Origin: Planctomycetota bacterium
Lineage (GTDB): Bacteria; Planctomycetota; MHYJ01; JACPRB01
Length of the DNA stretch: 35,293 nt
Direction of reading: 5' to 3'
Assembly: GCA_035649615.1 (NCBI GenBank)
Contig: DASRJF010000079.1
Location: 1-35,293 of the forward strand
A program made the translations under genes and the position numbers. This document shows, one piece after another, positions 7,526 through 23,854 of the stretch. The stretch's first letter is position 1. Each line of letters starts with the position of its first letter. The notes beneath the pieces are model-generated. The model did no database searches. It worked only from the letters and a program-made list of their open reading frames with translations, and was not told the DNA's origin.

Positions 7526-10500
7526 TTCGCGAGGGGCTCGTAGGCGTACCGGCGGAGGAGGCCGTCGTCACCGCCGACGAAGACCGACGCTCCGTCGGCG
7601 GCGCACAGGACCGACCGCGCGGCGGCGAAGCCCGTCGCGGGGGCCACCCGGGCGTCCCCCAGGCGGACGAGGAAGACGCGCCGGCCGGCGACGACCGCGG
7701 CGCCCGCCGCGGACACGCTCAGGCCGGTGGGGGATTCGGGAAGCGGGATGGAGCGTTCGACGCGCCCCCCGGCGGCGTCGATGACGAAGAGCTTCTTCGC
7801 CAAGGTGGCGACCAGGAGCTTCGCGCCGTCGGGCGTGAAGGAGAGCAGGGCGCCGTCTCCGACGGCTTCCCCGAGGTCGACGGGCCGCTTGGCGAACGTG
7901 TCGCGCGCCCACAGGTAGACCTGCGTGTCGTTCTTGCGCTCGTCGACCACGCTCTTGTTCCCCTCGCGCTTCCACGTCCGGTAGGTGCCTCCGCCGGTGG
8001 CGAAATAGCTTCCGGCCGGCGGCACGGCGATCGAGCCGTGGGCCTGGCCCCGGTCCGACGTCGGATTCCCCGCCCCGGATTTTTCAGTGTCGAGCACGTC
8101 GAGCGTGTAGACGTCGGTTCCGCCGCGATCGTCGCCCGGGGTCAGCCGGACGCGCAGGACCAGGAAGCCGTCGAAAGGGGCGAGGCGCGTCGCCGTGACC
8201 GGCACTTTCAATCCGGACGTTTCGACGTGGAGGTGGCGCGACTTCCCGTTCTCCCAGATGGCGACCTGCTCCGTCTCGGGCCCGTCGATTCCCGCGGGGC
8301 CCGTCAGTCCGGCGAGCCGCAGGCCGTCCTTCTCGATGAGCGCCGCGTAGAAGGGCTTGGGACCTCCCTTCACGGGGGGAGAATCGAGTTTCAGATCCTC
8401 CGCTCCCCAGACCGCGAACGACCCGAAACCGGCGCCGATGCCGACGACCCGGCCGTCCGCGGCGGCCGAGAGTTCATCGACGGGTCCTTTCGCGGCCGCC
8501 GCCGCCTTCTCGACGTAGAGATCGGCCCACAGGTCGCTCTCGAGATCTTTCAGTTCAGGCGCGCCTGGATTCTCGACCGCGGCCGCCCGCGCATGCCGGA
8601 CCGCCGCTGCGCGGTCGCCGCCCGCCAGGGCCGCCTTGGCCAGGCCGAGCGACCCCGGGCCCTTCAGCTCGTCGACGATCGCGCGGGCCTCCGCCGAATC
8701 GCCCCGGAGCGCGAGCGCCTTCTGCGCGGCGGCCAGGGCCTCGGCCCTCTTTCCATCCCCCTTGAAACGGCGCGCCTCGGCAAGGTGCTCGAGGAATCGG
8801 TTCTCGTCCCTGATTTTCCCGTGGCGGGCGCCGGAGGGCAGCAGCTTCTCGGCCTCCGCCAGGTATTTCCGCGCCTCGTCGAAGTTCCCCGCCCTGGCTT
8901 TCTCCACCGCCTTGTCGCATTCCGCCGCGTAGAGCGATCGCACTTCCTCCTCGGCCTTGCGGACGAGCGCTTCCGTCGCGGAGTCCGCCTTCAGCGAATA
9001 CGCCTCCTGGTACGCGGCCAGCGCCTCCGGCCACAGCTGCGACGCCTCGGCCTGTTTTCCGCGGGCCAGGGCGGCCTGCCACTTCCGACCCTGCTCGATG
9101 GAGCGCGAGAAGCCCGCCCGCTGGGCGGGGTCGACCCGTTCGAGCAGTTTTTCCGCCGCTTCCCAATCTCCCTGGTCGATCGCCAGCTGGATCTGCGGCA
9201 GGACGCCACCCGCCTGGTCCGCCTGCTTCTTCTTTTCATCCAGCTTGTCGCGAAGGGAGATCGCCTCCCCCTTCCGCTTCGGGCCGGAGAGGCGGATCGC
9301 CTGGTTGACGTCATTCAACGCCAGCGCGTACATGTCGTACGTCCCGTGATCGAGCGCCAGCCGGGCGGCGGCCAGGCGAAGGATGATCGCGGTCGGATGG
9401 AGGTCGATTCCCGCGCGCAATTTGTCCCACGCTCCCTGGAAATTCCGGTTCCGCACGAGCGCGTCCGCCTCTCCCGCTGCTTTCGCGGCCGATGATTCCT
9501 GCTCGCGAAGCTCGCGGGCGCGGCGCTCTCCGTCCTGCGCTTCGGAGGATTGGGGCTTCAAGTCGCGCGCCTTCTTGAAGAGCCTCTCGGCCTTGGCGAA
9601 GTCCTCGTCGGCCAGCGCGGCCTCGGCCTCTTTCATGATTCCGGCGAACTCGGTGCCCGGGGTGTCGACGACCGGAGGAGCCGGAGGGCTTCCCTTCGAG
9701 TTCTGGGCGAGCTTCTGGAGCAGGTAAATCCCTCCGATGCCCGCGGCGGTGACGAGCGCCAGCACGGCCGCCACCGCGATCAAGATCGGCGCCTTCGACT
9801 TCCGGGCCGGGATTGGGATCGAAGCCGCGGCCGCGGGGGCCGGCGGCGACGGCGAGGTGACCGCCGGGCGCGCGGGAGTCGAGGGAAGGACCGATGCCGC
9901 GTCGGAGCGAAGGGTGACTTCCGCCGCGGAGATCGAGGCGAGGTTCTGGAGCGAGGCGAGCGTGAATTCGGTGGTGGATTCCCCCCCGAGCGACTGCCGG
10001 CAGGCCTTGAGTCCCTCGCGCAGGATCCCGGCGTTCGCGTAGCGGGCCTCGGGCCGCTTCGCGAGACACGTGTCGATGAGCACGTCCGTGGGCCGGCTCA
10101 CGCTGGGATTGATCTGCCGCACCGGGACGTGCGGTTCGTCGCTCGTCTTCTTCAGGACATTGAGCACCGTCGTGCCCGTGAACGGGGCCGCGCCGGTCAG
10201 CAGGTTGTAGAGCGTCGCGCCCATGGCGAAGATGTCCGCCGACGGCCCCGCGCCTTTCGCGTTCTCGGCCTGCTCCGGCGCCATGTAGCCGGGCGTCCCC
10301 ATGGCCACGTTCGTGCCCGTCAGGCCGAGCGACAGGTCCTCCGAGTGCACCTTCGCCAGGCCGAGGTCCATGAGCTTCGCCTTCCGGTACTGCGGCTCGC
10401 CCTCCGCCGAGAGGGGGATGATGATGTTCTCGGGCTTGATGTCGCGGTGCACGAACCGCTCCTCGTGGGCGGCCGCGAGTCCGTCGCTGACCGTCAGGAG

Positions 10501-10947
10501 GAGGTCGAGGGCGTCCGCCTCCGGCAGCGGGCCCTGGCCCGATTTCACGCGGTCCTTGATGAGCCGGCCGGCGGTCTTGCCCGCCACGAACTCCATCACG
10601 AGATACCAGATCGCGGAGCCCGCCTTGGGGTCGCCGTCGACGTTGACGTCGAAGATGCGCACGAGGTTCGGGTGGTTCAATCGCGCGGCGACATTGGCTT
10701 CTCGCATGAAGTACTCGATCGCGTTGGGATCCTGGTCCGCGAGGTGGAAGGGCAGGATCTTCACGGCGACTTCGACGCCGAGCCGGGGGTGTTTCCCGAG
10801 ATAGACGGCGCCCATCCCGCCCTGCCCGAGCTTGCGGTACAGGGGGATTCCGCCCAGGGTCGGCCGTCCCGAGGGATCCCGGGGGGCGATGGCGAGCAGC
10901 CCGTCCTTGGCGAGATCCTTTTCGGACGCGTCGGGCATGGATTCCAT
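7522..10947 (-). CDS. Membrane Ser/Thr protein kinase STK1: Hanks kinase, one TM helix, TPR-like repeats, C-terminal beta-propeller-like domain
   Basis: GQGGMGAVYLG, VAVKIL, HRDIKPEN, DLG in place of DFG, GTPGYMAPEQ. TM helix APILIAVAAVLALVTAAGIGGIYLL. A long TPR-like helical region follows, then a Gly/Asp-rich beta-strand region at the C-terminus. An alternative start is the ATG at 10938. Confidence 0.9.
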   Translation of the reverse strand: MESMPDASEKDLAKDGLLAIAPRDPSGRPTLGGIPLYRKLGQGGMGAVYLGKHPRLGVEVAVKILPFHLADQDPNAIEYFMREANVAARLNHPNLVRIFDVNVDGDPKAGSAIWYLVMEFVAGKTAGRLIKDRVKSGQGPLPEADALDLLLTVSDGLAAAHEERFVHRDIKPENIIIPLSAEGEPQYRKAKLMDLGLAKVHSEDLSLGLTGTNVAMGTPGYMAPEQAENAKGAGPSADIFAMGATLYNLLTGAAPFTGTTVLNVLKKTSDEPHVPVRQINPSVSRPTDVLIDTCLAKRPEARYANAGILREGLKACRQSLGGESTTEFTLASLQNLASISAAEVTLRSDAASVLPSTPARPAVTSPSPPAPAAAASIPIPARKSKAPILIAVAAVLALVTAAGIGGIYLLQKLAQNSKGSPPAPPVVDTPGTEFAGIMKEAEAALADEDFAKAERLFKKARDLKPQSSEAQDGERRARELREQESSAAKAAGEADALVRNRNFQGAWDKLRAGIDLHPTAIILRLAAARLALDHGTYDMYALALNDVNQAIRLSGPKRKGEAISLRDKLDEKKKQADQAGGVLPQIQLAIDQGDWEAAEKLLERVDPAQRAGFSRSIEQGRKWQAALARGKQAEASQLWPEALAAYQEAYSLKADSATEALVRKAEEEVRSLYAAECDKAVEKARAGNFDEARKYLAEAEKLLPSGARHGKIRDENRFLEHLAEARRFKGDGKRAEALAAAQKALALRGDSAEARAIVDELKGPGSLGLAKAALAGGDRAAAVRHARAAAVENPGAPELKDLESDLWADLYVEKAAAAAKGPVDELSAAADGRVVGIGAGFGSFAVWGAEDLKLDSPPVKGGPKPFYAALIEKDGLRLAGLTGPAGIDGPETEQVAIWENGKSRHLHVETSGLKVPVTATRLAPFDGFLVLRVRLTPGDDRGGTDVYTLDVLDTEKSGAGNPTSDRGQAHGSIAVPPAGSYFATGGGTYRTWKREGNKSVVDERKNDTQVYLWARDTFAKRPVDLGEAVGDGALLSFTPDGAKLLVATLAKKLFVIDAAGGRVERSIPLPESPTGLSVSAAGAAVVAGRRVFLVRLGDARVAPATGFAAARSVLCAADGASVFVGGDDGLLRRYAYEPLAK

Positions 10948-11015: not shown

Positions 11016-14000
11016 TTGCCCATTGGGTATACTTGGTCGATGGAAGTGGGGAGCAAACCGCCGACGTCGGCCATCCACGGAGGAGCCACGGCTCCCGCCT
11101 CGCCCCCGGCCCGCGGGGGGGACGACCGGCTTCTCGGATCCCTGGCGGTCCGCGAGGGCTTCGTCTCCTCCCAGCAGGTCGAGGAGTGCGTGGCGCTCCA
11201 GAAATCGGCGGCGTCCCCCCGCAAGCTCGGCGAGATCCTCATCGAGAAGGGCTACATCACCGCGAAGCGGCTCATGGCCCTGCTGGACATCCAGAGCCGC
11301 CAGGTCCGGATCGTGGCGGCGGACCCGGCGCTCGGGGGGCTCTTCGGCCAGATCGCGCTCGACCTCGGCTTCGTGCCGGCGGACAAGATCGAGCAGGCCC
11401 TCCAGGAGCAGGCCTCGCTGTCGCGCACCGGGTCGCCCGCCATGCTGGGGCAGATCCTCCTGCGCAAGGGATGGCTCCAGACCGGGCAGTTCCTCGAGAT
11501 CCTCAAGGTCCAGCGGCGGACCATCCTGCGCTGCCCGGGCTGCGACACGTTTTACCGGTTCGAGGAGAAGGACCGCGGCTCGAAGTTCGCGTGCCGGCGC
11601 TGCGGGAACATCGTGCCGATCCCCGCGGCGGAGCCCGACGAACCGCGGGCCGGGGCGAGCCCGTCGGTCCCGGGGAAGCGCGCGGGAGAATCGGGGACCC
11701 AGTTCGGGCGGTACGCGATCCAGGAGGAGCTCGGCCGGGGAGGCATGGGGATCGTCTACAAGGCGCTGCACAAGGACCTGAACACCGTTTTCGCGCTCAA
11801 GATCCTGCGGGAGACGGAGATCTCGTCGGCGGAGGTCCTCGACCGGTTCAAGCGCGAGGCGCAGGCGGAGGCGCGGCTCCGCCACCCGAACATCGTCTCG
11901 ATCCACGATGCGGGCCAGGAGTCGGGCGTCCATTACCTCGCGATGGACTACATCGAGGGGGACCCGCTCACGACGCACCTCGCCCGGGGGTTCAAGATCC
12001 GCGACATGATCGCGCGCCTCGAGAAGGTCCTGCAGGCCGTCCACCACGCCCACGAGGAGGGGATCATCCACCGCGACCTCAAGCCCGCGAACATCATGAT
12101 CGACCTCGCGGGCGAGCCCCACGTCATGGATTTCGGGCTCGCCAAGTTCCTCGACGATCCGAAGCGCCTCATGCTGACGAAGGACGGGAGCTTCCTCGGC
12201 ACGCCCCATTACATGGCGCCGGAGCAGATCCGCGGCGAGGCGCGCCTCGTGGGCCCGCGCAGCGACATCTATTCGCTGGGGGTGATCCTCTACGAGATCC
12301 TGTGCGGCCGCACGCCCCACGTCGCGCCGAACAGCGTCGAGATCTTCCACAAGATCCTGACGGAGGAGCCGCCGCCGCCCCGGCTCTTCAACGCGCGCGT
12401 CCACCCCGACCTGCAGACGGTCTGCCTCAAGGCGATCGACAAGGACCCGGCGGTGCGGTACGCGACGGCCGGCGAGTTCGCGGACGACCTCCGGCGGTAT
12501 CTCGAGGGCGAGCCGATCCTGGCCCGGCCCCGGCCGTGGCCGATCCGCGCCCTCCGTCGCCTGCGGAAGAACAAGTCGACGGCCCTGGCCGCGATCTCGC
12601 TGTTCCTCTTCGCGATCTCCGGCGGCCTGGTCCTCTTCCTGATGTCGCGCGACGCGCGGGAGTTCGACCGGATCGCGAAGGAGGCGAAGGAGAGCTTCGA
12701 CGACCGGCAGTACGAGGAGGCCCTCCTGCACGCGCAGTCGGCGCTCCGCCTGCGGCCCGACGACAAGGCGATGGCCGAGTTCGTCGAGTGGGTCACGAAC
12801 CGGATCCGGACGCAGCGGGAGGAGTTCAGCAAGCGGCTCGTGCAGGACGAGAAGCGTCGGGAGGCCGAGCCCCGGATCGCCGCGGCGCGCATCATGCTGG
12901 AGATGATCCCGCGCCAGGCGGACCTCGACGGCGCGGGGGTCATGAAGCGGGCGGCGGAGGTCGAGAAGATCTTCGACGACGCGCTGAAGATCGTGACCGA
13001 CCACGAGGACGCGCTCCACGGGCGCGGCCGGGCCCGCATGCTGAAGGGGGACGCGGCCGGGGCGCTCGAGGATTTCGCGACGGTGTTGGAGAAGGCCCCG
13101 GGTCGCGTCGAGGCGCGCCAGGACGCGGCCCGCGTCCGGCTGTCGCTCGTGATCGAGGCGCGGCTGGTCGACCCGCGGCCCCCCGGCGTGCCTCCCGCCT
13201 CCGCCTTCGTGGAGGCCCGCAAGCGCGCGCACGCTGAATTTTCAGAGGTGTGGGCCAGCATGTCGCGCGACCCGGCGCGGGACGAATTCGCGCAGGCCGC
13301 GCTGCGGTGGCTCGATGGAAAGATCGCGGACGCGGCGGGCGGCCTGGACCGCTACGTCGGGTCGTACCCCGCGGATCCGGACGCGTGGCGGCTCCGCGCG
13401 ATGGCGCGGCTGGTCTCCGGGAATCCGGAGGGGGCGGAATCGGACCTGTCGATGGCGGCGCGGTATTCCCCGGGGGACGTCGTGACCCGGCTGGCGCGGG
13501 CGTGGGTTCGTCATGTCCGGGGGGACGCGGCCGGGGCCGACGCGGACCTCGCCGCGGTGGCGGCGCTGGCGCCGCAGAGTCCCGCGCGCGCGCTCCTGCG
13601 GGGCCGCATGCTGCTCGATCGGGGCGGGTTCCCGGCGGCGGCGGACGCGTTCGGCGCGGCGGCGGCCCTGGACCCCAAGTCACCCGGGGCGGCGCTGGGG
13701 ACCGGCTTGGCGCGCCTGCGGCGGGACGACCTGGAGGGTGCGCTGGCGCCGTTGCAGCGCGCGGCGGAGCTCGATGCCGCGGACGCCTGGCCGCTTCTGC
13801 TGCAGTCGGAGGTCCAGGAGCGACGGGGGCGCGCGCCGGAAGCGCTGGAGGCGTCGGAAGCGGCGGTCCGCCGGGCGCCGGACGCCGCGGTCGCGTACGA
13901 GCGGCGGGCGCGCGCGTGGGCGCGCCTGGAGAAGTTCCCCGAGGCGGTCAGGGACCTGGAGCGGGCCGTGAAGCTCGACCCCTCCTCCGCGGCGCGCCTG

Positions 14001-14048
14001 GACGCCGACCTGAAGGCGGCGCGGGCGCGGGTCTCCGGTCGGCCCTGA
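11016..14048 (+). CDS. Membrane Ser/Thr protein kinase STK2: two MshEN/T2SSE_N-like modules, zinc ribbon, Hanks kinase, TM helix, periplasmic TPR repeats
   Basis: The track start at 11016 is TTG. ATG 11040 is more likely because TATACT lies 6 nt upstream. Kinase motifs are GRGGMGIVYKA, FALKIL, HRDLKPAN, DFGLAK and GTPHYMAPEQ. The zinc ribbon is CPGC-x16-CRRC. The TM helix is ALAAISLFLFAISGGLVLFLM. The C-terminus has many TPR-like repeats. Confidence 0.9.
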   Translation: MPIGYTWSMEVGSKPPTSAIHGGATAPASPPARGGDDRLLGSLAVREGFVSSQQVEECVALQKSAASPRKLGEILIEKGYITAKRLMALLDIQSRQVRIVAADPALGGLFGQIALDLGFVPADKIEQALQEQASLSRTGSPAMLGQILLRKGWLQTGQFLEILKVQRRTILRCPGCDTFYRFEEKDRGSKFACRRCGNIVPIPAAEPDEPRAGASPSVPGKRAGESGTQFGRYAIQEELGRGGMGIVYKALHKDLNTVFALKILRETEISSAEVLDRFKREAQAEARLRHPNIVSIHDAGQESGVHYLAMDYIEGDPLTTHLARGFKIRDMIARLEKVLQAVHHAHEEGIIHRDLKPANIMIDLAGEPHVMDFGLAKFLDDPKRLMLTKDGSFLGTPHYMAPEQIRGEARLVGPRSDIYSLGVILYEILCGRTPHVAPNSVEIFHKILTEEPPPPRLFNARVHPDLQTVCLKAIDKDPAVRYATAGEFADDLRRYLEGEPILARPRPWPIRALRRLRKNKSTALAAISLFLFAISGGLVLFLMSRDAREFDRIAKEAKESFDDRQYEEALLHAQSALRLRPDDKAMAEFVEWVTNRIRTQREEFSKRLVQDEKRREAEPRIAAARIMLEMIPRQADLDGAGVMKRAAEVEKIFDDALKIVTDHEDALHGRGRARMLKGDAAGALEDFATVLEKAPGRVEARQDAARVRLSLVIEARLVDPRPPGVPPASAFVEARKRAHAEFSEVWASMSRDPARDEFAQAALRWLDGKIADAAGGLDRYVGSYPADPDAWRLRAMARLVSGNPEGAESDLSMAARYSPGDVVTRLARAWVRHVRGDAAGADADLAAVAALAPQSPARALLRGRMLLDRGGFPAAADAFGAAAALDPKSPGAALGTGLARLRRDDLEGALAPLQRAAELDAADAWPLLLQSEVQERRGRAPEALEASEAAVRRAPDAAVAYERRARAWARLEKFPEAVRDLERAVKLDPSSAARLDADLKAARARVSGRP
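11028..11033 (+). promoter_or_regulatory. -10 box candidate for STK2 (leaderless geometry)
   Basis: TATACT with exactly 6 nt before ATG 11040, so the predicted +1 is the A of the ATG. Confidence 0.35.
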
Positions 14049-14150: not shown

Positions 14151-17100
14151 CTAGAACTTCTTGTGGATGCGGGTGATGTCGCGGATCCGCGGGTCGCTGA
14201 CCGCCTGCGACACCGCTTCCTCGGCCTGGCGGGTTCCCTGCGCCGCCAGCGCGAGGACCGCCGCGGCGCGCGTCTCCTCCCCGAAGCCCTTCACGAGGCC
14301 GAAGAACCGGGGGCGCGTCTGCGCGATCTTCGTCAGGAGCGGCACCACGGCCGCGTTCGGGACCTGGCGGAAGTACGCCGAGCACAGGATCATGAGCGCC
14401 TCGTCCTGCGCCCCCTCGAGGATCTTCCCCACCTCGGCCTTCACCGCCTCGATCTTCATCTGCGCGGCCGCCTCGAGCCCCGAGTCCCTCAACTCCCTCG
14501 AGGAGTTCGCCAGCAGGCGGCGGATGATCCCCGCCACGACCGAGCGGGGCCAGTGCTCGGCCGACTTGAGAATGATCCCCCTCAGGTCCGGGCTGCCGTG
14601 CTCGGCCAGCATCGCCAGGTGCCCCGCGATCGGCGCCGTCAGGAGCGGTTCGATGACCTGCAGCACCCGCACCGTGCGCTCGATCGGGCCGTCCGGCGGG
14701 ATCAGGCGCATGATCTCCACCGCCAGCCGTTCCGCCGACGCGGACAGGGAGAGCGCGATCGCCCGGCGGATCCGCACGTCGGGCTCCTCCGCCAGGATGT
14801 CCACGAGCTTCTCCACGGTCGGGCCCCCGACCGCGAGGAGGATCGTGATGGCCGCGTTGCGGTCGTCCTCCGAGGGCTTCCTCACGGCCGCGCAGATCGC
14901 GTCGAACGCCATCGACTGCGGGATCAGAAGGAGCGCCGCCTCGCACACCGCCGCGACCTCGGGCGGCGTGACGGGGGAATCCGCCCGGCGCCGGAGCGTC
15001 CGGCCCGCGATCTCCGCCAGCTCCCCGAGGCATCCGGACGCCGCCGCCGCGGGGATCCAGACCGGAAGCAGGTTCACCGCGGCGCGCACGTGGAGCGGCT
15101 CCGTGTCCTCCGACAGTCTCATCTTGAGCGACGCGGCCGACCGCATGACCGCGAGCTTGCGCGTCCCCGGCGAGGCGAACGCGATCGACCGCGTCAGGAG
15201 GTTGAACGCCCGCGTCCGGTGCGAGAGGCTCGGATGGTGGAAGTGGGTTCCCAGCCGGTCCACGAGCTGCTCCGCGACGGGCCGTCCCGCGCCGTACGCG
15301 AGGGCCTCCACCAGGAGCGGGAACTGCCGCTCGAGGTCGGGCGTGAGGAACTCCTCGTTCGAGCGCGCCAGGTGCTCCCGCGCCCGGATCTCCGACCGCA
15401 CCGGCTTGGGCGGAGGGTGCAGCGGCATCTCCAGGTCGTCGGTCGCCCGCTCGTAGACGCGCGCGCCGAACGCGACGTGGCTGAATTGCGTGAAGAGCCG
15501 GTCCCCCGTGCCGGGCTGCATCGCCTCCTCCGGCGACAGCGAGAAGTAGCTGATGAGGGCCCGGATCTCGTCCTCCATCAGGCCCCGCCCGATGAGCACG
15601 CTCTTGATCTTGCGGTGGTCGATCTCCTTCGTCAGCCAGGCGCCCGCGTCGCTGAAGAACTTCGCGTCCGCCGGATGACCGTTGAGCACCAGTTCGGCGT
15701 CGGCCGTTCCCCACGCCACGGCCGGCACCTTGCGCAGGAGTTCCATGAAGGCGCGGACGCACTGGGCCGTCGTTTCTTCCACGAGCGTGTGGCCCGGCGG
15801 GTAGCGCTTCAGGTTGTCGACGCCCGCTTTGAGATACCGCATCGCGTCCCGCACCGCCGGCAGGTCGTCGGCGGGCACGGGCTTGTCCGCCGCTTCCAGG
15901 CGCACCCGGCGCATCGTTTCCCGGGCCTGGTACGCCTTCTGGACGATGTCGACCGCCTCCATGGCCTCGCGCGCCAGGAACCGCTCCCAGAAGTCGGGCG
16001 CCGCGCGCGCCCGGTCGAACGGCTCCGTGAAGTTCCGGACGATCGTCTCGATCCGCGGGGTCTCGAACGGGGGAAGAATGGTGATCGATTCAACGAGACG
16101 GTCGTCGAGGAGCCGTCCGAAATCCGCCGCGACCGGATTGTCGGTCTGGACGCCGTTGATCGCCGGCCCGTTCGTCGTGACGGAGAAGGTCAGCCCGGGG
16201 CCCCCGATCAGGAGCGCCTCGAGCGACCCGCGAAGCTGCGCGAGGAACGTGGTGCCGACCTGGCTCCACTGCGGATAGAGGCGCCCGATCTTCACCGCGG
16301 CCATGAAATGGCGCATCAGGGCCAGGCTTTGTTCGGTGGCCGACGCCGCCAGGTTCGTGGTCACCGCCGGAAGGCGGGGTCTCCGGGATCCCGCCTTGGC
16401 GGGCGGCTGGATGAGCGTCGCGCGCTTCTGGGCCACCTCGTCGAACTTCCGCGCCTTCGCCTCCCGGCCGGCCCGGTTGTAGTGGAACGCGATCTCGTCC
16501 GCGATGTGGTCGATGTCGCCGCCGTGGCGCGCCTCCTGCACGACGCCGACGCGGTCGTGGATCTCCTTCCGCTCCGTCGCGTCCGACGTCTGCAGCCGGA
16601 CGCGCCGCGCGTGGGCCGCCGGGAAGGAGAGGAGGTCCTGCCCCGACTCGGAGGGGACCAGCAGGCGGGTCCGCCGGACCTCGTCGATGAGGTCCAGCAT
16701 TTCCGTGTCGCCCTCGCCGAGGACTTCCTGCAGCAGCTCGGGATCGAACCGCGTGCCGATCACGGCCGCGCGCGTGAGCAGGCTGTTCGCGCCGGTCGGC
16801 AGCGCCTCGGCGACGGCGCGGATGGCGCCCGCGAGATCGCGCGAGAGGTCGGACGGCAGGAGCTCCGGCAGCGACCACCGGCCCGCCGACTGCTTCATCC
16901 GGCCGCGCAGCAGGAGGGAGCGGACGGTCTCCTCGAGGTAGAGCGGGTTGCCCTGCGACGCCACGATGAGCCGCGCCACCGATTCGTTGCTGATTTCCGC
17001 GTCGGGCAGGATGCCGCGGATCATCTGGCGCAGGTCCTCGGCAGGCAGGGGCAGCAGGTTGAGGCGCGCCGCGCCGGGCGCGAAGTCCCGCCAGAAGGCG

Positions 17101-18215
17101 CCCGAGGGCGTCATCTCCATTTCCGTCGACGGCCGGGCCGACCCGACGGCCACCAGGATCGGCAGCTTCCGGTTGATCGCCGCCCGGTACACCTCGAACG
17201 TGGCGCCGTCGGCGAATTCCACCTCGTCGATCAGCGCCAGCAGGGGGCCGATCCGCGACAGCTCATCGAAGAGCGCCCCGAAAGCCTCGAAGACCAGGCG
17301 GCCCGCGTTGCCGGGCGGCACCTGCTCCGCGGACCACTCCGGCGGAAGATCCCGCAGGACGATCGCCAGGGCCGCCCGATGCGGGGGGCTGATCCGCTCC
17401 ATGGCCTTGAGGACCATGGGGCGGTCATAGGCCATCAGCGTCTCGATTTGCTCCGCGAGCGTCGAATACGGAGCGGTGGAGCGCGACTCCTGGCTCGTGG
17501 CCGTCAGGAGGACGAACTTCTCGATCCGCGACCAGACGCCCAGCTCGTGCAGGAGCCGCGACTTGCCGACGCCGGAAGCGCCGGTGACGATCGCGACCGA
17601 CGGTCCGACGTTGCGGACGTCGCTCGCGAGCTGCCGCATGCGCGACTGCTCCCCGACCCGGCCCACGAGGATCGGGCACGGAAGTCCGCGGAAGATGCCG
17701 ATCTCCGCGAGCGCCACCGGGTCGAGCCGCCCCGCGACCGCGATCTTGTTGTGGCCCTGGTGCTTGGCGACCAGGAGCGCTCTCTCCGAAGCCTCGATCA
17801 CGGCGGCCGGGGACTTGCCGTCCATCGGATAGCTCGCCACCGACGCGCTGGCCGTCAGCGTGACCTGCCGGCCGCCTGCCGTGAAGGGCTTGTGGTCGAC
17901 CGCGCCCCGCAGTTTCTCCGCGGTGGCGGCTCCCTTGTCGCGGTCGGCGTCGGGAACGAGCAGGCAGAACGAGTCGCCGCCGTAGCGGAACAGGAGCGCC
18001 CCGTCGCCGGCGGCTTCCTTCAGGCGGGCCGCGACCTCCCGGAGCAGGGCGTCCAGCTTCGGGCGGTCGAGGCCCTCGGTCGTGGCGTTGAAGGCGTCGA
18101 GGTCGACCAGGACGAGCGCGCCCGCGTGGGCGGGCATCCGCTCGCGAAGGGCGGATAGAAGGCCCCGGCGGTTGCCGAGCCCGGTCGCGAGATCCTGATG
18201 TGAAGGGTCGACCAT
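14151..18215 (-). CDS. Degenerate GGDEF domain, P-loop (AAA_16/STAND-like) NTPase and long helical/HEAT-repeat region, 1354 aa
   Basis: The N-terminus reads DLATGLGNRRGL..LVLVDLDAFN..RYGGDSF (17967-17981). Walker A is GASGVGKS (17559-17582) and Walker B is LLALIDEVEFAD. The C-terminal third has HEAT-like repeats, e.g. EEPDVRIRRAIALSL, GSPDLRGIILKSA and DPRIRDITRI. Confidence 0.8.
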   Translation of the reverse strand: MVDPSHQDLATGLGNRRGLLSALRERMPAHAGALVLVDLDAFNATTEGLDRPKLDALLREVAARLKEAAGDGALLFRYGGDSFCLLVPDADRDKGAATAEKLRGAVDHKPFTAGGRQVTLTASASVASYPMDGKSPAAVIEASERALLVAKHQGHNKIAVAGRLDPVALAEIGIFRGLPCPILVGRVGEQSRMRQLASDVRNVGPSVAIVTGASGVGKSRLLHELGVWSRIEKFVLLTATSQESRSTAPYSTLAEQIETLMAYDRPMVLKAMERISPPHRAALAIVLRDLPPEWSAEQVPPGNAGRLVFEAFGALFDELSRIGPLLALIDEVEFADGATFEVYRAAINRKLPILVAVGSARPSTEMEMTPSGAFWRDFAPGAARLNLLPLPAEDLRQMIRGILPDAEISNESVARLIVASQGNPLYLEETVRSLLLRGRMKQSAGRWSLPELLPSDLSRDLAGAIRAVAEALPTGANSLLTRAAVIGTRFDPELLQEVLGEGDTEMLDLIDEVRRTRLLVPSESGQDLLSFPAAHARRVRLQTSDATERKEIHDRVGVVQEARHGGDIDHIADEIAFHYNRAGREAKARKFDEVAQKRATLIQPPAKAGSRRPRLPAVTTNLAASATEQSLALMRHFMAAVKIGRLYPQWSQVGTTFLAQLRGSLEALLIGGPGLTFSVTTNGPAINGVQTDNPVAADFGRLLDDRLVESITILPPFETPRIETIVRNFTEPFDRARAAPDFWERFLAREAMEAVDIVQKAYQARETMRRVRLEAADKPVPADDLPAVRDAMRYLKAGVDNLKRYPPGHTLVEETTAQCVRAFMELLRKVPAVAWGTADAELVLNGHPADAKFFSDAGAWLTKEIDHRKIKSVLIGRGLMEDEIRALISYFSLSPEEAMQPGTGDRLFTQFSHVAFGARVYERATDDLEMPLHPPPKPVRSEIRAREHLARSNEEFLTPDLERQFPLLVEALAYGAGRPVAEQLVDRLGTHFHHPSLSHRTRAFNLLTRSIAFASPGTRKLAVMRSAASLKMRLSEDTEPLHVRAAVNLLPVWIPAAAASGCLGELAEIAGRTLRRRADSPVTPPEVAAVCEAALLLIPQSMAFDAICAAVRKPSEDDRNAAITILLAVGGPTVEKLVDILAEEPDVRIRRAIALSLSASAERLAVEIMRLIPPDGPIERTVRVLQVIEPLLTAPIAGHLAMLAEHGSPDLRGIILKSAEHWPRSVVAGIIRRLLANSSRELRDSGLEAAAQMKIEAVKAEVGKILEGAQDEALMILCSAYFRQVPNAAVVPLLTKIAQTRPRFFGLVKGFGEETRAAAVLALAAQGTRQAEEAVSQAVSDPRIRDITRIHKKF

Positions 18216-18319: not shown

Positions 18320-20350
18320 TCAATTCCCCTCGTTGAGCTGGTGCAGGTACTCCGACGCCTGGCCTTCGAACTGGGTCCCCTTGAGCTCCCGAAGCAGGTC
18401 CCGGGCCATGGCCGGATAGTTCGCGGACATGGCGTACAGCGCGAGCGCGAACTTGTTCCCCGGCGAATCGAGCAGGGGAGGGAGCTTGTCGGTGCGGGTC
18501 AGGGCCATTTCGCGGATCCCCGTCGGCCCGAACTTGGACCACGGAGCGAAGTCCGACGGCTGCTGCCCGATGACGTAGATGACGCCGTCCGTCTGGGCCT
18601 TCGTGAGCGTCACATTCTTCGCCTGCGTCGTCCCGATCGTCAGCTTCAACAGGTACGGATTCGTCGCCAGGATGCGATCGATGAGCTGCTGCTTGAACAT
18701 CGCGATGTGCTCCCGGCGGCGCAGGATCTCGCTGAACTCGGGCCGCTTCAGCACGTCCGGGCCGAGCGAATCGACCAGGTCGGGACGGAATTCCTCCAGG
18801 TGTTTCATCGCCTTGTCCGTGGAGGTGCCGCTTTCGAACCAGCTCCGGATCCTCGACTGGAAGATGAACGTGGCCGAGGCCGCGATCAGCATCAGGAAGA
18901 CCACGAGCAGGATCGGGACCCACCGGCCCTTGCGCGATCCCAGCGACTCGGCGATGTCCTGCATCCCCGCCGGGAGCGTATTGACGGACGCCATCTTCGG
19001 AAGCGACCGCTTGCCTCCCCCCGAGACGTTGGCCAGCTCCTCGGCGAACGCGAGCGCGTTCTGGGGACGCTTCTGCGGATCCTTGGACAGGGACCGCATG
19101 CACAGCGCCTCCAATTCCGGGGGGACGACGAGCATCCGGCGCGAGGAGGCCGCCGCCGAGTCCCGGCCCCAGGCCAGCTCGCTCGGCGCCTTCGGTTTCT
19201 CATCCTGGACGCGCTTGAGGACGTCCATCACCTCGCCGACGAACGGCGGCTGCCCCGCCAGCATCTCGTAGAGGATCGACCCCAGGCCGTACACGTCGGT
19301 GCGCGGATCGAGCAGGTCGTTGCGCCCCGCCGCCTGCTCCGGCGCCATGTACGACGGCGTCCCGCTCACCACGCCCTGCTCGACCTTGATCTCGCCGAGC
19401 TGGCGGGCGAGGCCGAAGTCCAGGATGCAGGCGCGTCCCTCGCCCGTGACCATGATGTTCGCGGGCTTCAGGTCGCAATGGAGCAGCGGCGCCGGCCGCG
19501 TGTGCGCATAGTGGAGCGCCTGCGCCGTCTCGTAGAGGACGCCGATCCACTTCCGCGGATTCTCGTGGAAGGGCGAGACCTTGCCGGCCTTCTTGCACTC
19601 CTGGATCTCGTCGAGCATCGTCCGGCCGTCGAGGAACTCCATGCTGATGTAGTACTCGTCCTCGACCCGGCCGATGTCGTAGATCGACACGATGTTCGGA
19701 TGGCGGAGCTTGATCGCGTTGTGGGCCTCGTTGAGGAGGCTCGCGACCCGCGTGTGGCGGACCGCCTTGCCCGAGCCCTGCGGCGGAGGCTTGATCCGCT
19801 TGAGCGCCACGAGCTGGTTCAGGTAGACGTCCCACGCGCGGTAGATCGCGCCGATGCCCCCGCGCCCGATCTCGCCCAGGATGACGTACTTGCCGAACCG
19901 CTTGGAGGGATCCTTGCGCGCCTCGATGACATCGGGCGGGACCGGCGCGCTGCTGGCGACGATGATCATCGAGTCGATGCTGTCGTCCGGGCGGTCCGGC
20001 GACGGCTCGATGAGAATCGTCTCGCACTTCCCGCACTTGTAGCCGATGGCGTCCGGCCGCAAGTTGACCGTCACCATGATGTTGCAGCGCGTGCAGAGGA
20101 GGACCTTCTTGTTCTGCTCCGCGAGGGCGTCGCGGATGGCCTCCTTGGTCGTGTAGCCCTTCTGGAGCAGCAATTCGCCGATGCGCGGGACCACCGCCTG
20201 GCCCTGCATCGACTGCTGGATCTTCAGGCATTCGTCGAGGTGGACCACGGTGACGGACCCCATCCGGAGCAGGATCTGCCCCATGTCCGCCCGCGGAGGC
20301 GCGGACAGGGCGGGAGACGTCACCGGGCCGGGCGGAGGGGGAATAGCCAT
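18320..20350 (-). CDS. Membrane Ser/Thr protein kinase STK3: one MshEN/T2SSE_N-like module, zinc ribbon, non-RD Hanks kinase, TM helix, uncharacterised extracytoplasmic domain
   Basis: Track ORF 18320..20548. The real start is probably ATG 20350 (MAIPPPPGPV), because upstream of it the ORF is Arg/Cys-rich shadow. Motifs are GRGGIGAIYRA, VALKRI, HCDLKPAN (non-RD), DFGLAR and GTPSYMAPEQ. The zinc ribbon is CTRC-x16-CGKC. The TM helix is WVPILLVVFLMLIAASATFIF. Confidence 0.9.
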   Translation of the reverse strand: MAIPPPPGPVTSPALSAPPRADMGQILLRMGSVTVVHLDECLKIQQSMQGQAVVPRIGELLLQKGYTTKEAIRDALAEQNKKVLLCTRCNIMVTVNLRPDAIGYKCGKCETILIEPSPDRPDDSIDSMIIVASSAPVPPDVIEARKDPSKRFGKYVILGEIGRGGIGAIYRAWDVYLNQLVALKRIKPPPQGSGKAVRHTRVASLLNEAHNAIKLRHPNIVSIYDIGRVEDEYYISMEFLDGRTMLDEIQECKKAGKVSPFHENPRKWIGVLYETAQALHYAHTRPAPLLHCDLKPANIMVTGEGRACILDFGLARQLGEIKVEQGVVSGTPSYMAPEQAAGRNDLLDPRTDVYGLGSILYEMLAGQPPFVGEVMDVLKRVQDEKPKAPSELAWGRDSAAASSRRMLVVPPELEALCMRSLSKDPQKRPQNALAFAEELANVSGGGKRSLPKMASVNTLPAGMQDIAESLGSRKGRWVPILLVVFLMLIAASATFIFQSRIRSWFESGTSTDKAMKHLEEFRPDLVDSLGPDVLKRPEFSEILRRREHIAMFKQQLIDRILATNPYLLKLTIGTTQAKNVTLTKAQTDGVIYVIGQQPSDFAPWSKFGPTGIREMALTRTDKLPPLLDSPGNKFALALYAMSANYPAMARDLLRELKGTQFEGQASEYLHQLNEGN

Positions 20351-20426
20351 AAGCGGCCCCGGGTCGATCCCGGGGTCCGCATAGATAATACACAAATCGC
20401 GGTCGAGGAGGGAGCCCGGCGAGCGA

Positions 20427-21962
20427 CTACGGCGGCGCCCCGGCCAGGTCCGCAGGCAGGTGGGCCAGCCCGATCCGGGAGCCCCCGGCCGCCGCGAGCA
20501 GGCGTTCCACGACCACGCGCAGCTCCCGCACGTTGCCCGGCCAGGCATGGGATTCCAGGCGGCGCCGGACCTCGGGGTCGAGATGATCGTCGAGCGAACC
20601 GACGCCGCGGCCGCCGAGCGTCCTCAGGAAATGATGGAGGAGCGCCGGCAGATCGCCCATCCGATCGCGCAGCGGGGGCAGCGCGACCACGTCGCCGAAC
20701 CGGCGGTCGAAGCCCTGTCCGCTGGAGGCGCCCGCCAGGACCCGAACGTCCTCCTCCACCGACGGCTCTTCCACGAGGACGAGGAGCCGCTCGCGGATCG
20801 GTTCCGCCATCGTGTCGAGGCCGTCGACATACAGGGTGCCGCCGCGCGCCTCGGCGACGCGACCCCCGGCCCCGAACAAGGCCGCCTCGAGGAGGCCGGG
20901 CGCGACGGCCGCGCCGCGGACCGACACGAACGGTCCCACGGCGCGGGGTCCGAGGGTGTGAAGCCGCCGGGCCGCCCGCTCCTTCCCCGTGCCGGGCTCG
21001 CCCGTGAACAGGACCGGCGTGTCCGACGAGGCCGCGCGCTCGATGCTCGCGATGGCGGCGGACAGGGCGCCCGAGGTCACCAGCTCGCATCCCTCCGCCA
21101 GGCGTCCGGCGGCCGCGGCCACCGCCTCGCGGGCCCGCCGCATCCGGCGCGCGGTGGCGATCGCCCCGGCGCCGAAGGACGCGATCCACGCCGCGTAGCG
21201 AAGGTCGGCGCGCGTGAAGGCCGGCGGCGGGGCGTCGAGGTAGACGAACCCCAGCATGTCCCGGCCCGCCGCGAGGGGCGTCGCCAGCACCTCGACGGGC
21301 CGGCCCGACCACGTCCCTCCCCGCGCCGCGTCCGACGCGAGCACCGACTTGCGCTCCTTCCACACCTTGTGGAAGAGCACGTTCGAAAGCTGGATCTCGT
21401 CGTCCCCCGGGGGAGCGCGCCGCGCCGCGGGCTGGAGGCGGCCTCCTTCTGAAGCCAGCATGACAAAGCCCCGGCGCGCCTTCAGATCCGTCACCAGGCG
21501 GTCGAGGAGCATCCGGACCGCCGTGTCTTCCGGCTCCGCCCCGTGGAACGCGCGCGCGGCGTCGAGCGTGGAGGCCGTCCGCGCGGCATCGAGCGCCTCG
21601 TCGAACGGATCCTCGAGCGTTTCGGTGACGAGCGTCGCCCCGCCGGGCCGCGAGCGGGGCGAGCTGTCGCGCTCGGCCGTGGGATCGAAGACGAGCAGGT
21701 GCTCGCCGATCTCGATCTCGTCGTCGCGCGAGAGGTCCTTTTCGGCGACCTTCTGCCCGTTCACGAAGATCCCGTTGCGGCTCCCCGCATCCTGGATGGC
21801 GAACCCTGCGGAACGGCGCACGAATCGTGCGTGCACGCGGGAGATGTGGTTGCCTTCGATGCGGACGGCGCAAGAGACCGCACGGCCGACGGTGCTTCCG
21901 TCGTCGATTTCGAACGTCCGGCCGCGCAGCGGGCCTTCGACGGCGACGAGTCGGGTCGTCAT
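20427..21962 (-). CDS. FHA, GAF-like and sigma-54-interaction-type AAA+ protein with no DNA-binding domain
   Basis: Start at ATG 21962 (MTTRLVAVEGPLRGRTFEI), which overlaps the upstream stop (ATGA at 21959-21962). FHA motifs are GRAVSCAVRI..ISRVHARF..DAGSRNGIFVNG. AAA+ motifs are VLFTGEPGTGKE, GGTLYVDGLD and WPGNVRELR. The protein ends about 30 aa after the sensor-II region. Confidence 0.85.
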   Translation of the reverse strand: MTTRLVAVEGPLRGRTFEIDDGSTVGRAVSCAVRIEGNHISRVHARFVRRSAGFAIQDAGSRNGIFVNGQKVAEKDLSRDDEIEIGEHLLVFDPTAERDSSPRSRPGGATLVTETLEDPFDEALDAARTASTLDAARAFHGAEPEDTAVRMLLDRLVTDLKARRGFVMLASEGGRLQPAARRAPPGDDEIQLSNVLFHKVWKERKSVLASDAARGGTWSGRPVEVLATPLAAGRDMLGFVYLDAPPPAFTRADLRYAAWIASFGAGAIATARRMRRAREAVAAAAGRLAEGCELVTSGALSAAIASIERAASSDTPVLFTGEPGTGKERAARRLHTLGPRAVGPFVSVRGAAVAPGLLEAALFGAGGRVAEARGGTLYVDGLDTMAEPIRERLLVLVEEPSVEEDVRVLAGASSGQGFDRRFGDVVALPPLRDRMGDLPALLHHFLRTLGGRGVGSLDDHLDPEVRRRLESHAWPGNVRELRVVVERLLAAAGGSRIGLAHLPADLAGAPP

Positions 21963-23854
21963 CTCGTGATTTTCAACGTCTTCTTCATCCGTTCCAGCGC
22001 GGGCCGGCAGGCGTCCTCGTCCCCCTTCAGGACGACCTCGAGCACCTCGCCGGGGCCCAGGCGCACGTACCACCGGCTGTCGGTCTCGTAAGTCTCGCGC
22101 CCCTCCAGCGTCCCCAATTCTCCTGACGACGAGGCGCCCAGCTTCCGTGCGGCCTTTCGGGTGTCGAGCTTGACGAGCTCGTACGGCAGGTCGATGTAGC
22201 TCACGATCGCCCGGTTGTCCGGGTCGGCCGATCCGATCACGGCGAGCGTGAACGGCGGGAGATCCTTCGCGTCGCGGAACGTCCAGCCCTCGGGCTTCTC
22301 GAATGCGACGCCGAGGAGCGGCGCCTCGAAACGGTTCCCCTCCGCCGCCGGCGGCGGCGCCACTTTCGTGGCGCGGCCCTCGATCGTGTAGTCGAGGATC
22401 TCGATCTTCATGGCGCCGTGCATGAACCCCGCGCCCCGCATTCCCTCGAGCGTCGAGCCGGAATCTTCCGCGTCCGTCTCGCTGAACTTGAGGCGGGCCG
22501 CGTCGGCGACGCTCCCGCCGAGCGTCGCGTCAAAGTCCACCCACCGCCCCAGCCAGGCGCTCGTCCACGCGTGGCCTCCCCAGGCGCCGCGGTAATAGAG
22601 GTACCCGCAGCACACCTTCGCGGGGATTCCCGCCGCGCGGAACATGGCCGCCAGGAGGACCGCGTGCTCGGTGCAGTCCCCGGTCCGGTTCGTGTAGACC
22701 TCGCGGGCGCTCGCCGCCCCGATGTCCATGCTCTTCTTGTCGATGTGGTTGTGCACCCACGCGGCGAGGCGGCCGGCCACGAGGGCGGGGTCCTTCTCGT
22801 CTCCGGCGATTTTCCGGGCCTCCGCCGCGATCTCCGCGTCATCGCATTGAACGGCCGGCGACGGCTTGAGGAAGATCGCCAGGTCCGGACCCGGCGTTCC
22901 GGTCGTGGGCTGACTCGACTCCACGCGCAGGGTCACGGATCGCGCGCTCCGGTTGACCACCGACTGGGTCCCGGCCGGGGCTTTCCATTCCGCGAAGACC
23001 TCGTCGGGCCGCGTCATCTGGACGGTGAGGGCCGTGATCTCGCGGGGACGGGGAAGCGCGACGTTCGACCGCGGCATGGTTCCGAAGAAGACCTCGGGCA
23101 TCTCGGCGCCGGTGTTCTTCAGCGCCTCCTCCCGGGTCGCGGGCTCCATGACGATCTTGATCCCCATCATGTTGGTTTCCATCGCGACGGAGGACGCCTT
23201 GTCGTCCATCCAGGAGGTGATGGCGATGCCCGGTTGAAGCGACGTCTTCGTGAGGACGCGGACGAGCTCCTGTTCGCGGCCCTGGAAAGTCTTCTTCTCG
23301 CGGCCTTCCACGAGAATGGAGATCTCGTCGGGCTTCCCCAGTTCCGCGTTGAAGCTCTTGAGCGTGTAGGCGGTTCCCTTCGCGAATCCCTTCTTGAGCG
23401 TGGCAAGCCGCATTCCCTCGGACAGGATCCACTCGGGGTCCCAGGCGATCTCGGATTCGCGGGTCGCGCCTCCGGTCGTGGTCGACAGCTTGAGCCGGCC
23501 GTCCTTGATGACTCCCTCGTTCACGGTCGGGGACGACGACATCACCATGCGCGACGTGAAGCGCAGCGGCCGGCCGTCGGGAGTTTCGACATGCCGCGTG
23601 TCCGTCGTGACCTCGATGCCGGTGCCCATGCGCTTCAGGACCATGCGGGACTTGACTTGCGTTTCGACCTCGTCGGGGCGGCACGTCCGCGTGCCGTGGA
23701 CGTAACCGACGCGCACGGCGCGCTCTCCCACCACCGACATGATTCCCCAGCTCTCCTCGACCTGGACCTCGGGCTTCGGCGGCGCGAGGGGGGCCGGCAC
23801 GTGGCTGTCGCACGCCGAGGCGAGGAGAAGAAGGAGGGCGACGGCGGCGCGCAT
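21959..23854 (-). CDS. Transglutaminase-like (Cys-His-Asp) lipoprotein
   Basis: Start at ATG 23854 (MRAAVALLLLLASAC, lipobox-like ASAC), with GGGAG 7 nt upstream. The core is TGDCTEHAVLLAAMFRAAGIPAKVCCGY..GGHAWTSAWL..WVDFDAT. Confidence 0.85.
   Translation of the reverse strand: MRAAVALLLLLASACDSHVPAPLAPPKPEVQVEESWGIMSVVGERAVRVGYVHGTRTCRPDEVETQVKSRMVLKRMGTGIEVTTDTRHVETPDGRPLRFTSRMVMSSSPTVNEGVIKDGRLKLSTTTGGATRESEIAWDPEWILSEGMRLATLKKGFAKGTAYTLKSFNAELGKPDEISILVEGREKKTFQGREQELVRVLTKTSLQPGIAITSWMDDKASSVAMETNMMGIKIVMEPATREEALKNTGAEMPEVFFGTMPRSNVALPRPREITALTVQMTRPDEVFAEWKAPAGTQSVVNRSARSVTLRVESSQPTTGTPGPDLAIFLKPSPAVQCDDAEIAAEARKIAGDEKDPALVAGRLAAWVHNHIDKKSMDIGAASAREVYTNRTGDCTEHAVLLAAMFRAAGIPAKVCCGYLYYRGAWGGHAWTSAWLGRWVDFDATLGGSVADAARLKFSETDAEDSGSTLEGMRGAGFMHGAMKIEILDYTIEGRATKVAPPPAAEGNRFEAPLLGVAFEKPEGWTFRDAKDLPPFTLAVIGSADPDNRAIVSYIDLPYELVKLDTRKAARKLGASSSGELGTLEGRETYETDSRWYVRLGPGEVLEVVLKGDEDACRPALERMKKTLKITR

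Follow-up and report, generated by a model that had tools for sequence, protein, structure and literature searches.

Introduction

STAND proteins (signal transduction ATPases that have numerous domains) of the MalT/PH0952 type (6mfv) are built from a P-loop nucleotide-binding oligomerization domain (NOD) with Walker A and B motifs, a GxP-type helical motif, a winged helix, an arm, and a C-terminal helical-repeat sensor. The gene considered here lies on the minus strand at 14151..18215 of a 35,293-nucleotide stretch of DNA from a Planctomycetota bacterium (contig DASRJF010000079.1; this whole stretch is called the window), and its 1354-residue product (the target) shares that core, in which the helical motif reads GNPLYLEE. 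Unlike MalT and PH0952, the target has a sensor made of two alpha/beta modules (MID) plus HEAT repeats rather than TPR or SUPR repeats, and a GGDEF-fold domain, not a DNA-binding domain, in the effector position. The GGDEF domain appears to have lost its cyclase chemistry, and we propose, at a probability we put near 50%, that the protein is a dead-cyclase STAND switch working with a membrane Ser/Thr kinase encoded upstream. The model in which a closed ADP form opens into an ATP-bound multimer, as outlined in PMC4381067 and PMC6468293, is presumed to apply to the target.

The order of cyclase-fold head, STAND ATPase, and repeat sensor recurs in class III adenylyl cyclase-AAA_16-TPR proteins (PF00211+PF13191; the mycobacterial Rv0386 type), a parallel that the initial annotation of this DNA, made from the sequence alone, had drawn correctly: the NODs of these proteins are the nearest, or next-best, homologs outside the target's own family, at 25-28% identity over ~30% of the query. 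GGDEF domains and class III cyclases share a fold, according to PMC7159879, citing Pei and Grishin 2001. The target nevertheless differs from the class III proteins in that its head is a GGDEF domain, not PF00211, and is degenerate; its sensor is MID plus HEAT; and it has no helix-turn-helix (HTH).

Retention of the fold after loss of the signature, with reuse for regulation, is likewise known from the non-catalytic GGDEF domains of PelD, PopA, LapD, CsrD, and GdpP, and the NCBIfam models for LapD, CsrD, and GdpS match the target weakly. PelD and PopA, however, bind cyclic di-GMP (c-di-GMP) through an RxxD motif that is absent from the target, and none of the five is carried on a STAND NTPase. 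Kinase-headed STANDs, which join a Ser/Thr kinase to an AAA_16 NOD, are common (the Mycobacterium tuberculosis PknK type, and the protein at 3-1976 of the window). They differ from the present arrangement, where the partner kinase is separate, membrane-anchored, and encoded upstream, and where a pseudo-GGDEF domain lies between the kinase position and the NOD; two fusion proteins discussed below (P0212 and P0215) do place a kinase at the N-terminus of the target architecture. An early survey (PMC1262709) includes kinase-TPR-GGDEF and "Kinase + MalT-like" proteins, and GGDEF has been described as a rare alternative to cyclic nucleotide monophosphate cyclases in the unrelated vWA-MoxR conflict systems (PMC7159879). 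The parts of the target (i.e., the GGDEF fold, the AAA_16 STAND, and the HEAT repeats) are thus already known, and its logic parallels that of the cyclase-STAND-TPR proteins; no description of the GGDEF-headed STAND family, its MID module, or its pseudoenzyme-plus-kinase branch was found in the searchable literature.

Results

The GGDEF head

Three features of the head and its junction with the ATPase carry the argument:

17745..18200, minus strand: degenerate GGDEF domain, residues 6-157 (PF00990, sequence matches in the Protein Data Bank (PDB), AlphaFold2 (AF2), Foldseek)
17967..17981, minus strand: signature G79-G-D-S-F83 in place of GG[DE]EF (alignment of 43 core-clade sequences)
17661..17741, minus strand: linker between GGDEF domain and NOD, residues 159-185, AVAGRLDPVALAEIGIFRGLPCPILVG (conservation, substitution rates)

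PF00990 matches residues 6-157 in Pfam with E 2.8e-23 and 82.9 bits (cutoff 23.8), spanning model positions 2-161 of 161, and TIGR00254 of NCBIfam matches at 69.7 bits (cutoff 37.4); the GGDEF matches in NCBIfam are generic, with no equivalog found. PA0575, PleD, WspR, and DosC are among its sequence matches in the PDB. The head is modeled by AF2 at a predicted local distance difference test score (pLDDT) of 89, and Foldseek superposes it on the isolated GGDEF domains 4iob, 3icl, 3ign, and 4zmm with template-modeling (TM) scores of 0.8-0.87 and a root-mean-square deviation of ~2 A. The GGDEF-fold N-terminus that had been read from short landmarks is therefore confirmed by profile, and the motifs quoted in the initial annotation are all present, both in the head (DLATGLGNRR at residues 8-17, LVLVDLDAFN, RYGGDSF at residues 77-83, and AKHQGHNK) and in the ATPase that follows (GASGVGKS at residues 212-219 and LLALIDEVEFAD at residues 325-336).

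Catalytic residues were mapped onto a PleD sequence that had been checked against the published active-site residue numbers. The fourth-position Glu of the signature (E371 in PleD) is needed for metal binding and catalysis. The correspondences are:

D38, PleD D327
D40, PleD D329
N43, PleD K332
T46, PleD N335
D50-R51, PleD G339-H340
D55, PleD D344
G70...A73, PleD R359...D362 (I-site)
R77, PleD R366
G79-G-D-S-F83, PleD G368-G-E-E-F372
K151, PleD K442
H155, PleD R446

Citing the PleD structure, PMC6629876 uses D327, K332, N335, D344, position 370, K442, and R446 to judge GGDEF catalytic function. We added G339-H340 as a further conserved landmark; neither this pair nor E371 is on the published list. 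Residues were counted over 43 core-clade sequences, all from Planctomycetota. At the E371 position, 29 have Ala, 12 have Ser, and one each has Val and Glu. Asn is never found at the N335 position, which instead varies freely (T13, S11, C7, A6, V5, G1), and Lys occupies the K332 position in only 5/43, the window copy having Asn. In 16 sequences, the second Gly of the signature has given way to A, L, R, V, M, or S. The G339-H340 equivalent is gone across the clade, the GHxxGD stretch being represented by DRPKLD in the window copy, and the D344 equivalent is Asp in 31/43. The I-site, an RxxD that in c-di-GMP receptors precedes the signature by five residues, is also missing: its Arg is found once and its Asp not at all, and the aligned positions of the window copy are G70-D-G-A73. 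This canonical inhibitory site was never part of the head. The absence of both an RxxD I-site and a recognizable GHxxGD, noted earlier from the target alone, therefore holds.

Equivalents of D327, D329, R366, E370 (an Asp here), and F372 are near-invariant across the clade (D38, D40, R77, and D81 are each conserved in at least 42/43), the K442 equivalent (K151) is Lys in 41/43, and the R446 equivalent is Arg in 28/43 and His (H155) in the window copy. Note that the metal- and phosphate-contacting residues among these (D327, E370, K442, and R446) are necessary, not sufficient, for diguanylate cyclase activity. Judged from the alignment, there is little doubt that cyclase chemistry and guanine reading have both been lost from the GGDEF head across this planctomycete clade, and that the head is not a cyclase. 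The initial annotation had proposed this loss of competence from the Ser of the signature; comparison with PleD extends it clade-wide to the equivalents of E371, N335, K332, and G339-H340. The public annotation of these proteins as diguanylate cyclases is very likely wrong for this clade.

The head is not decaying. The ratio of nonsynonymous to synonymous substitution rates (dN/dS), computed among four relatives at 78-85% identity, is 0.15-0.23 in the head, 0.20-0.22 in the NOD, 0.17-0.21 in the MID region, 0.09-0.20 in the HEAT region, and 0-0.09 in the linker; the pseudo-GGDEF domain is therefore under purifying selection like that on the ATPase. The highest conservation score in the whole protein, 0.86, belongs to the 30-residue block at residues 151-180, which covers most of the linker.

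Two alternative functions for the head bear on these counts. In the first, which had been the suggestion of the initial annotation, the degenerate domain would sense a ligand, either GTP held in the former active site or c-di-GMP, and its binding would set the state of the STAND ATPase. Precedents exist among degenerate GGDEF domains for binding of GTP (PdeA/CC3396) and of c-di-GMP (PelD, PopA). The conserved metal and phosphate residues (D38, D40, R77, and D81 in at least 42/43, K151 in 41/43) and the purifying selection on the head would fit a sensor, and the MshEN-like segment of the partner kinase described below hints at a c-di-GMP setting. Base-reading positions should not, however, vary in a conserved ligand pocket, as they do here: the Asn335 position is unconserved and never Asn, the D344 equivalent is Asp in only 31/43, the G339-H340 pair has been lost, the R446 equivalent is His in the window copy, and the I-site lacks both Arg (1/43) and Asp (0/43). 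We therefore disfavor the GTP/c-di-GMP sensor role and consider it unlikely.

In the second, the head would still be an enzyme that, like its relatives, is activated by STAND oligomerization: a diguanylate cyclase whose signature is unusual, or else a cyclase or nucleotidyltransferase acting on another substrate. The fold is fully intact, D327 and the Asp equivalent to E370 are retained, close architectural relatives look catalytic, and the variant signatures AGDEF and SGDEF are active in some enzymes. In the core clade, however, the fourth-position Glu is Ala or Ser in 41/43, the second Gly is itself changed in 16/43, K332 and N335 are lost throughout, and R446 is His in the window copy (residue list of PMC6629876), so that retained activity seems very improbable.

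The upstream kinase

The gene preceding the target on the same strand encodes a membrane kinase:

18320..20350, minus strand: partner membrane Ser/Thr kinase, upstream of the target (Pkinase E 5.6e-42; ortholog alignment)
20114..20287, minus strand: MshEN-like pair of 24-residue motifs within it, DMGQILLRMGSVTVVHLDECLKIQ ... RIGELLLQKGYTTKEAIRDALAEQ (profile of eight orthologs)

The partner kinase consists of the MshEN-like motif pair, a CxxC...CxxC Zn ribbon, the kinase domain, one transmembrane helix, and an extracytoplasmic domain of ~200 residues. Its kinase domain has the VALK Lys, DFG, and APE but carries HCD (HCDLKPAN) instead of HRD, and it is thus a non-RD kinase. The open reading frame (ORF) called mechanically is 18320-20548 on the minus strand, overlapping the upstream gene by ~120 nt; the ortholog alignment makes Met67, at nt ~20350, the likely start. 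In L001, the 85% relative, the N-terminal segment and the kinase domain are in two ORFs with a stop between them and are recorded as two genes; the stop could reflect a frameshift or a misassembly, or the gene could truly be split.

Synteny was assessed over the 22 core-clade loci (48-100% identity) with enough upstream DNA. In 19 of them, a partner-kinase ortholog ends 4-130 nt before the target gene on the same strand, and these orthologs score 400-1700 bits over their full length in phmmer. All other neighbors differ between lineages. No terminator-like site was found in the 104-nt gap between kinase and target in the window. None of the ~20 gene copies with an intact GGDEF signature has the partner kinase.

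The initial annotation had paired the target with kinases on both of its sides. That pairing stands for the upstream kinase at 18320-20350, but not for the converging kinase at 11016-14048, whose synteny is confined to relatives at 77% identity or more. It had also given both neighbors putative c-di-GMP receptor domains, and here the evidence is divided. The published MshEN domain comprises two 24-residue RLGxxhhxxGhhxxxxLxxxLxxQ motifs separated by a 5-residue spacer, and the Arg at position 1 stacks on guanine; fusions of MshEN to Ser/Thr kinases have already been reported (PMC5013675). The partner kinase shares with the MshEN/PilF GSPII domains (5htl, 8pfa) two tandem 24-residue xhGxxhhxxG......hxxxhxxQ motifs, and a profile of its N-terminus built from eight orthologs finds the c-di-GMP-binding PilF domains 8pfa (E 2.6e-11) and 6f8l (E 1.2e-18), as well as MshEN 5htl (E 3.6e-4, with both motifs covered). 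Designed pentatricopeptide proteins topped this PDB search and were rejected as an artefact, their scores being sums of many ~7-bit repeat matches. Unlike MshEN, however, motif I of the partner kinase always has Asp in place of MshE Arg9 (eight orthologs), its spacer is 10-13 residues rather than 5, and PF05157 (MshEN) matches the N-terminus of neither flanking kinase in Pfam at E<=10. Motif II fits the published relaxed pattern in 6/8 orthologs, the window copy not being one of them. The N-terminus of the partner kinase thus appears MshEN-like by homology, and its binding of c-di-GMP is putative.

Relatives and kinase fusions

A homolog search recovered ~44 full-length orthologs at 28-100% identity, the named ones being from Planctomycetes/Planctomycetota metagenome-assembled genomes (MAGs) and annotated "diguanylate cyclase." Three further proteins, at 24-25% identity, have the same complete architecture; more distant relatives are GGDEF-AAA_16-TPR, class III cyclase-AAA_16-TPR, and kinase-AAA_16 proteins. 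The MID-region profile matched 2830 of 1.84 billion cluster representatives at E<=1e-3; tightening the threshold to <=1e-10 left 453 matches, and <=1e-30 left 120. Among the best 150 of the 2830, 78 are complete GGDEF-NOD-MID-HEAT proteins and two are kinase fusions, and the rest are seemingly fragments of the same layout. Among the matches listed, 87 representatives have a GGDEF domain, and 67 of them, about three quarters, keep the signature (51 AGDEF, 14 GGDEF, 1 SGDEF, and 1 DGDEF); most of the [AG]GDEF type also carry FKxINDxxGHxxGD.

The parent family with an intact [AG]GDEF signature (for instance, P0045-P0047 and the pairs from Rokuibacteriota) has the same four-part architecture and length, with 24-26% identity along the whole protein, retains FKxINDxxGHxxGD, and is predicted to be active; unlike the window clade, it lacks an adjacent kinase. 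Intact forms are found mostly in Rokuibacteriota, all of whose loci carry the intact signature. Planctomycetota MAGs of soil and groundwater are the source of the core clade and also of a second one that is degenerate (28-30% identity; GGD[SA]F, with Asn335 retained). Taken together, the family members look like active cyclases, so the window clade is read as a degenerate branch, and its derivation as a pseudoenzyme offshoot of a STAND-regulated diguanylate cyclase is strongly favored.

Two proteins, P0212 (2140 residues) and P0215 (1762 residues), are Pkinase-GGDEF-AAA_16-MID-HEAT fusions, as identified by Pfam and by our own hidden Markov models. Their signatures, STGTF and ASSSF, respectively, are the most degenerate found, and the N335 and D344 equivalents are also gone. 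The two are 31% identical to one another and share only 22-27% identity with the remaining sequences of the set. Their amino-acid composition is of the low-GC kind, and their kinase is of the RD type (HRDIKPSN), unlike the window partner. As both the lineage and the type of kinase are different, association with a kinase arose at least twice, with the GGDEF head dead both times.

Other relatives show variations on the family architecture. In the Rokuibacteriota loci L006, L019, L021-L025, L049, and L050, the intact-signature relatives occur as two tandem paralogs. The upstream one is canonical (LTGLYNRR, RFAGDEF, Walker B LDD), and the downstream one has LTQLYNWW and a Walker B of LLENL that has lost the Asp, which suggests an obligate hetero-pair with one ATPase-dead subunit. 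P0048 (1570 residues) contains TPR, HD-GYP, GGDEF (AGDEF), AAA_16, and TPR, thereby placing domains for c-di-GMP synthesis and degradation on one STAND core.

The ATPase and the C-terminal sensor

The remainder of the protein is organized as follows:

16416..17660, minus strand: STAND core, residues 186-600, consisting of P-loop NTPase, helical domain (GNPLYLEE), winged helix, and arm (PF13191, TIGR03903, Foldseek)
17559..17582, minus strand: Walker A, G212-ASGVGK-S219 (G215, G217, and K218 invariant in 46 aligned sequences)
17223..17243, minus strand: Walker B, L325-LALID-E331 (D330 at least 90% conserved)
15891..16352, minus strand: MID module 1, residues 622-775, with RLYP and NG motifs (AF2 pLDDT ~90, hhalign)
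15441..15881, minus strand: MID module 2, residues 779-925, with NLKRYPPGH and LVLNG motifs (AF2, hhalign; second copy of module 1)
14154..15398, minus strand: HEAT/ARM-like alpha-solenoid, residues ~940-1354 (HEAT_2, AF2 pLDDT >95, Foldseek)

Pfam places AAA_16 (PF13191) at residues 183-348 with E 2e-11, as expected from the P-loop NTPase that had been seen after the head, and the STAND core portion of TIGR03903, the NCBIfam model for TOMM kinase/cyclase fusions, matches residues 183-592 at E 4e-29. In Foldseek, the ~430 residues following the head superpose on the STAND proteins PH0952 (6mfv), Apaf-1 (3shf/3sfz), and CED-4 (4m9s); the 6mfv match, with a query TM score (TMq) of 0.40 over 426 columns, is the best structural match to anything other than a GGDEF domain. 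All Planctomycetota relatives retain the Walker B pattern hhhhD[ED]. By its motifs and its predicted structure, the ATPase core is intact, and the protein is a MalT/AAA_16-type STAND switch.

Some 900 residues of helical or HEAT-like repeats had originally been proposed to follow the P-loop. This holds for residues ~940-1354, which are HEAT/ARM, but residues 350-600 are the helical, winged-helix, and arm parts of the STAND core, and residues 622-925 are the alpha/beta modules. In each MID unit (alpha-alpha-beta-beta-alpha-beta-alpha), a conserved (R/K)LYP loop connects two long helices; a beta-hairpin follows, its NG turn invariant, and the unit closes with an alpha-beta-alpha-beta tail. The two modules are duplicates, as hhalign aligns them with a probability of 99.7% (E 2.5e-25), and a tandem pair is present in 133 of the best 150 of the 2830 MID matches described above. 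No Pfam family was found for the MID region (residues 600-1000) at E<=10, a profile of the region gave only noise against PDB sequences, and the HEAT solenoid dominated the Foldseek matches of the C-terminal model, leaving MID without an assigned fold. MID is thus a candidate new sensor domain of no known family. HEAT_2 is at the cutoff when the whole protein is searched and above it (34.7 bits, four stretches) for the C-terminal fragment alone, and the top Foldseek matches of the C-terminal ~410 residues are the PP2A PR65 subunit, importins, and designed ARM/alphaRep proteins. The solenoid is presumed to be a sensor or scaffold.

Gene call and neighboring genes

The whole gene is described by a single line:

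14151..18215, minus strand: GGDEF(pseudo)-STAND NTPase-2xMID-HEAT protein, ATG start, 1354 residues plus stop (ORF, codon bias, Pfam)

The window is ~70% GC, and long ORFs are found on both strands. In the minus-strand ORF 14151..18215, GC at codon positions 1/2/3 is 0.72/0.48/0.94, as expected of coding DNA in this genome; the plus-strand ORF 14163..18158 was rejected as an Arg-rich antisense shadow of the kind typical of 70% GC DNA. A database protein, P0001 (1328 residues), is 100% identical to the target but has been called from the later Met27. The ATG at 18215 is preferred because residues 8-26 (DLATGLGNRRGLL...) are kept in all orthologs. The protein thus has four parts: GGDEF, AAA_16/STAND NTPase, two tandem alpha/beta modules of ~145 residues, and a HEAT solenoid of ~410 residues. 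Two AF2 models were built on 44-46 homologs, one of residues 1-620 (pLDDT 89.3, predicted TM score 0.84) and the other of residues 600-1354 (pLDDT 90.6).

Other genes of the window are:

11016-14048, plus strand: converging Ser/Thr kinase with four MshEN-type 24-residue motifs (two pairs), Zn ribbon, kinase domain, transmembrane helix, and TPR
7522-10947, minus strand: third kinase, beyond the converging kinase
20427-22073, minus strand: FHA-GAF-sigma54-interaction AAA+ protein, directly upstream of the partner kinase
21959-23914, minus strand: transglutaminase, upstream of the partner kinase
3-1976, minus strand: Pkinase + AAA_16 protein (kinase-headed STAND), cut by the window edge

The converging kinase resembles the partner kinase in its N-terminal layout, its MshEN-type motifs having been found by regular expression only. 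The FHA-GAF-sigma54 protein ends at the AAA lid, and Pfam finds no DNA-binding HTH in it. Both this protein and the transglutaminase were rejected as further partners of the target, as they are syntenic only in the 85% relative. An IS110-family transposase (30046-31152, minus strand) and a Ppx/GppA phosphatase with an HD domain (33484-35277, minus strand) are unrelated to the finding.

Discussion

A mechanism that would accommodate these observations begins with a signal read by the MID/HEAT region. The signal would release autoinhibition, allowing exchange of ADP for ATP and oligomerization of the NOD, as in MalT and PH0952 according to PMC4381067 and PMC6468293. In the catalytic relatives, such oligomerization would bring GGDEF domains together and so yield c-di-GMP. 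GGDEF domains need to dimerize to make c-di-GMP. In the window clade, the clustered dead heads and the invariant linker would instead offer a platform on which the co-transcribed membrane Ser/Thr kinase docks or is brought close, and the output would be protein phosphorylation. The reverse direction, with the kinase gating the STAND switch, is also possible.

The steps of this scheme are not equally secure. Because the operon is conserved and a kinase-pseudoGGDEF-STAND fusion has arisen independently, we think it probable, though by a limited margin over even odds, that the target functions with the upstream kinase. Whether the head is an adaptor rather than a ligand sensor is an evenly balanced question, and the proposal as a whole, a dead-cyclase STAND switch working with the upstream membrane kinase, carries the probability given at the outset. 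The broader history is more tentative, and we would bet somewhat against it: cyclase chemistry may have disappeared at least twice from a family of STAND-controlled diguanylate cyclases, with rewiring to Ser/Thr kinases by an operon in the window clade and by N-terminal fusion in P0212 and P0215, with the dead GGDEF domain acting as an adaptor that passes STAND oligomerization to the kinase.

Several observations weigh against a kinase-coupled adaptor. The metal- and phosphate-contacting side of the head pocket is preserved, and the pocket could still bind some phosphorylated ligand. Three core-clade loci, L014, L015, and L035, have no adjacent kinase. The second degenerate Planctomycetota clade (~8 loci) has a dead signature and no adjacent kinase either, so loss of catalysis does not require the kinase. 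With five Ser/Thr kinases in the 35-kb window, some chance adjacency is expected. Finally, the interaction between kinase and switch is putative, being suggested by gene context and fusion.

An antiviral STAND of the Avs/NLR-like kind, with HEAT sensing a phage protein and the dead GGDEF domain a decayed or decoy effector, would share the layout of N-terminal effector, STAND, and C-terminal repeats with Avs proteins and fit the prominence of STAND NTPases in defense, but it is hardly credible here, as PADLOC yields only PtuA (E 0.025, over 27 P-loop residues), the gene behaves as a vertically inherited, single-copy ortholog (48-100% identity) whose kinase partner is fixed, its remaining neighbors are housekeeping or signaling genes (pyruvate carboxylase, iron-containing alcohol dehydrogenase, GreA) and not a defense island, and dN/dS is ~0.2 throughout, including the putative sensor.

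GGDEF domains that have degenerated are common, as are planctomycete loci rich in kinases. Planctomycete signaling is almost unstudied; the kinase-switch pair described here offers a concrete test case. If the proposal is right, the catalytic relatives would be an instance of c-di-GMP synthesis activated through induced proximity by an NLR-like switch, and the window clade would show a signaling enzyme domain that was kept as a pseudoenzyme while the output of the pathway was handed to a kinase. The sensor chassis would then have stayed the same while its output changed from synthesis of a second messenger to phosphorylation of proteins.

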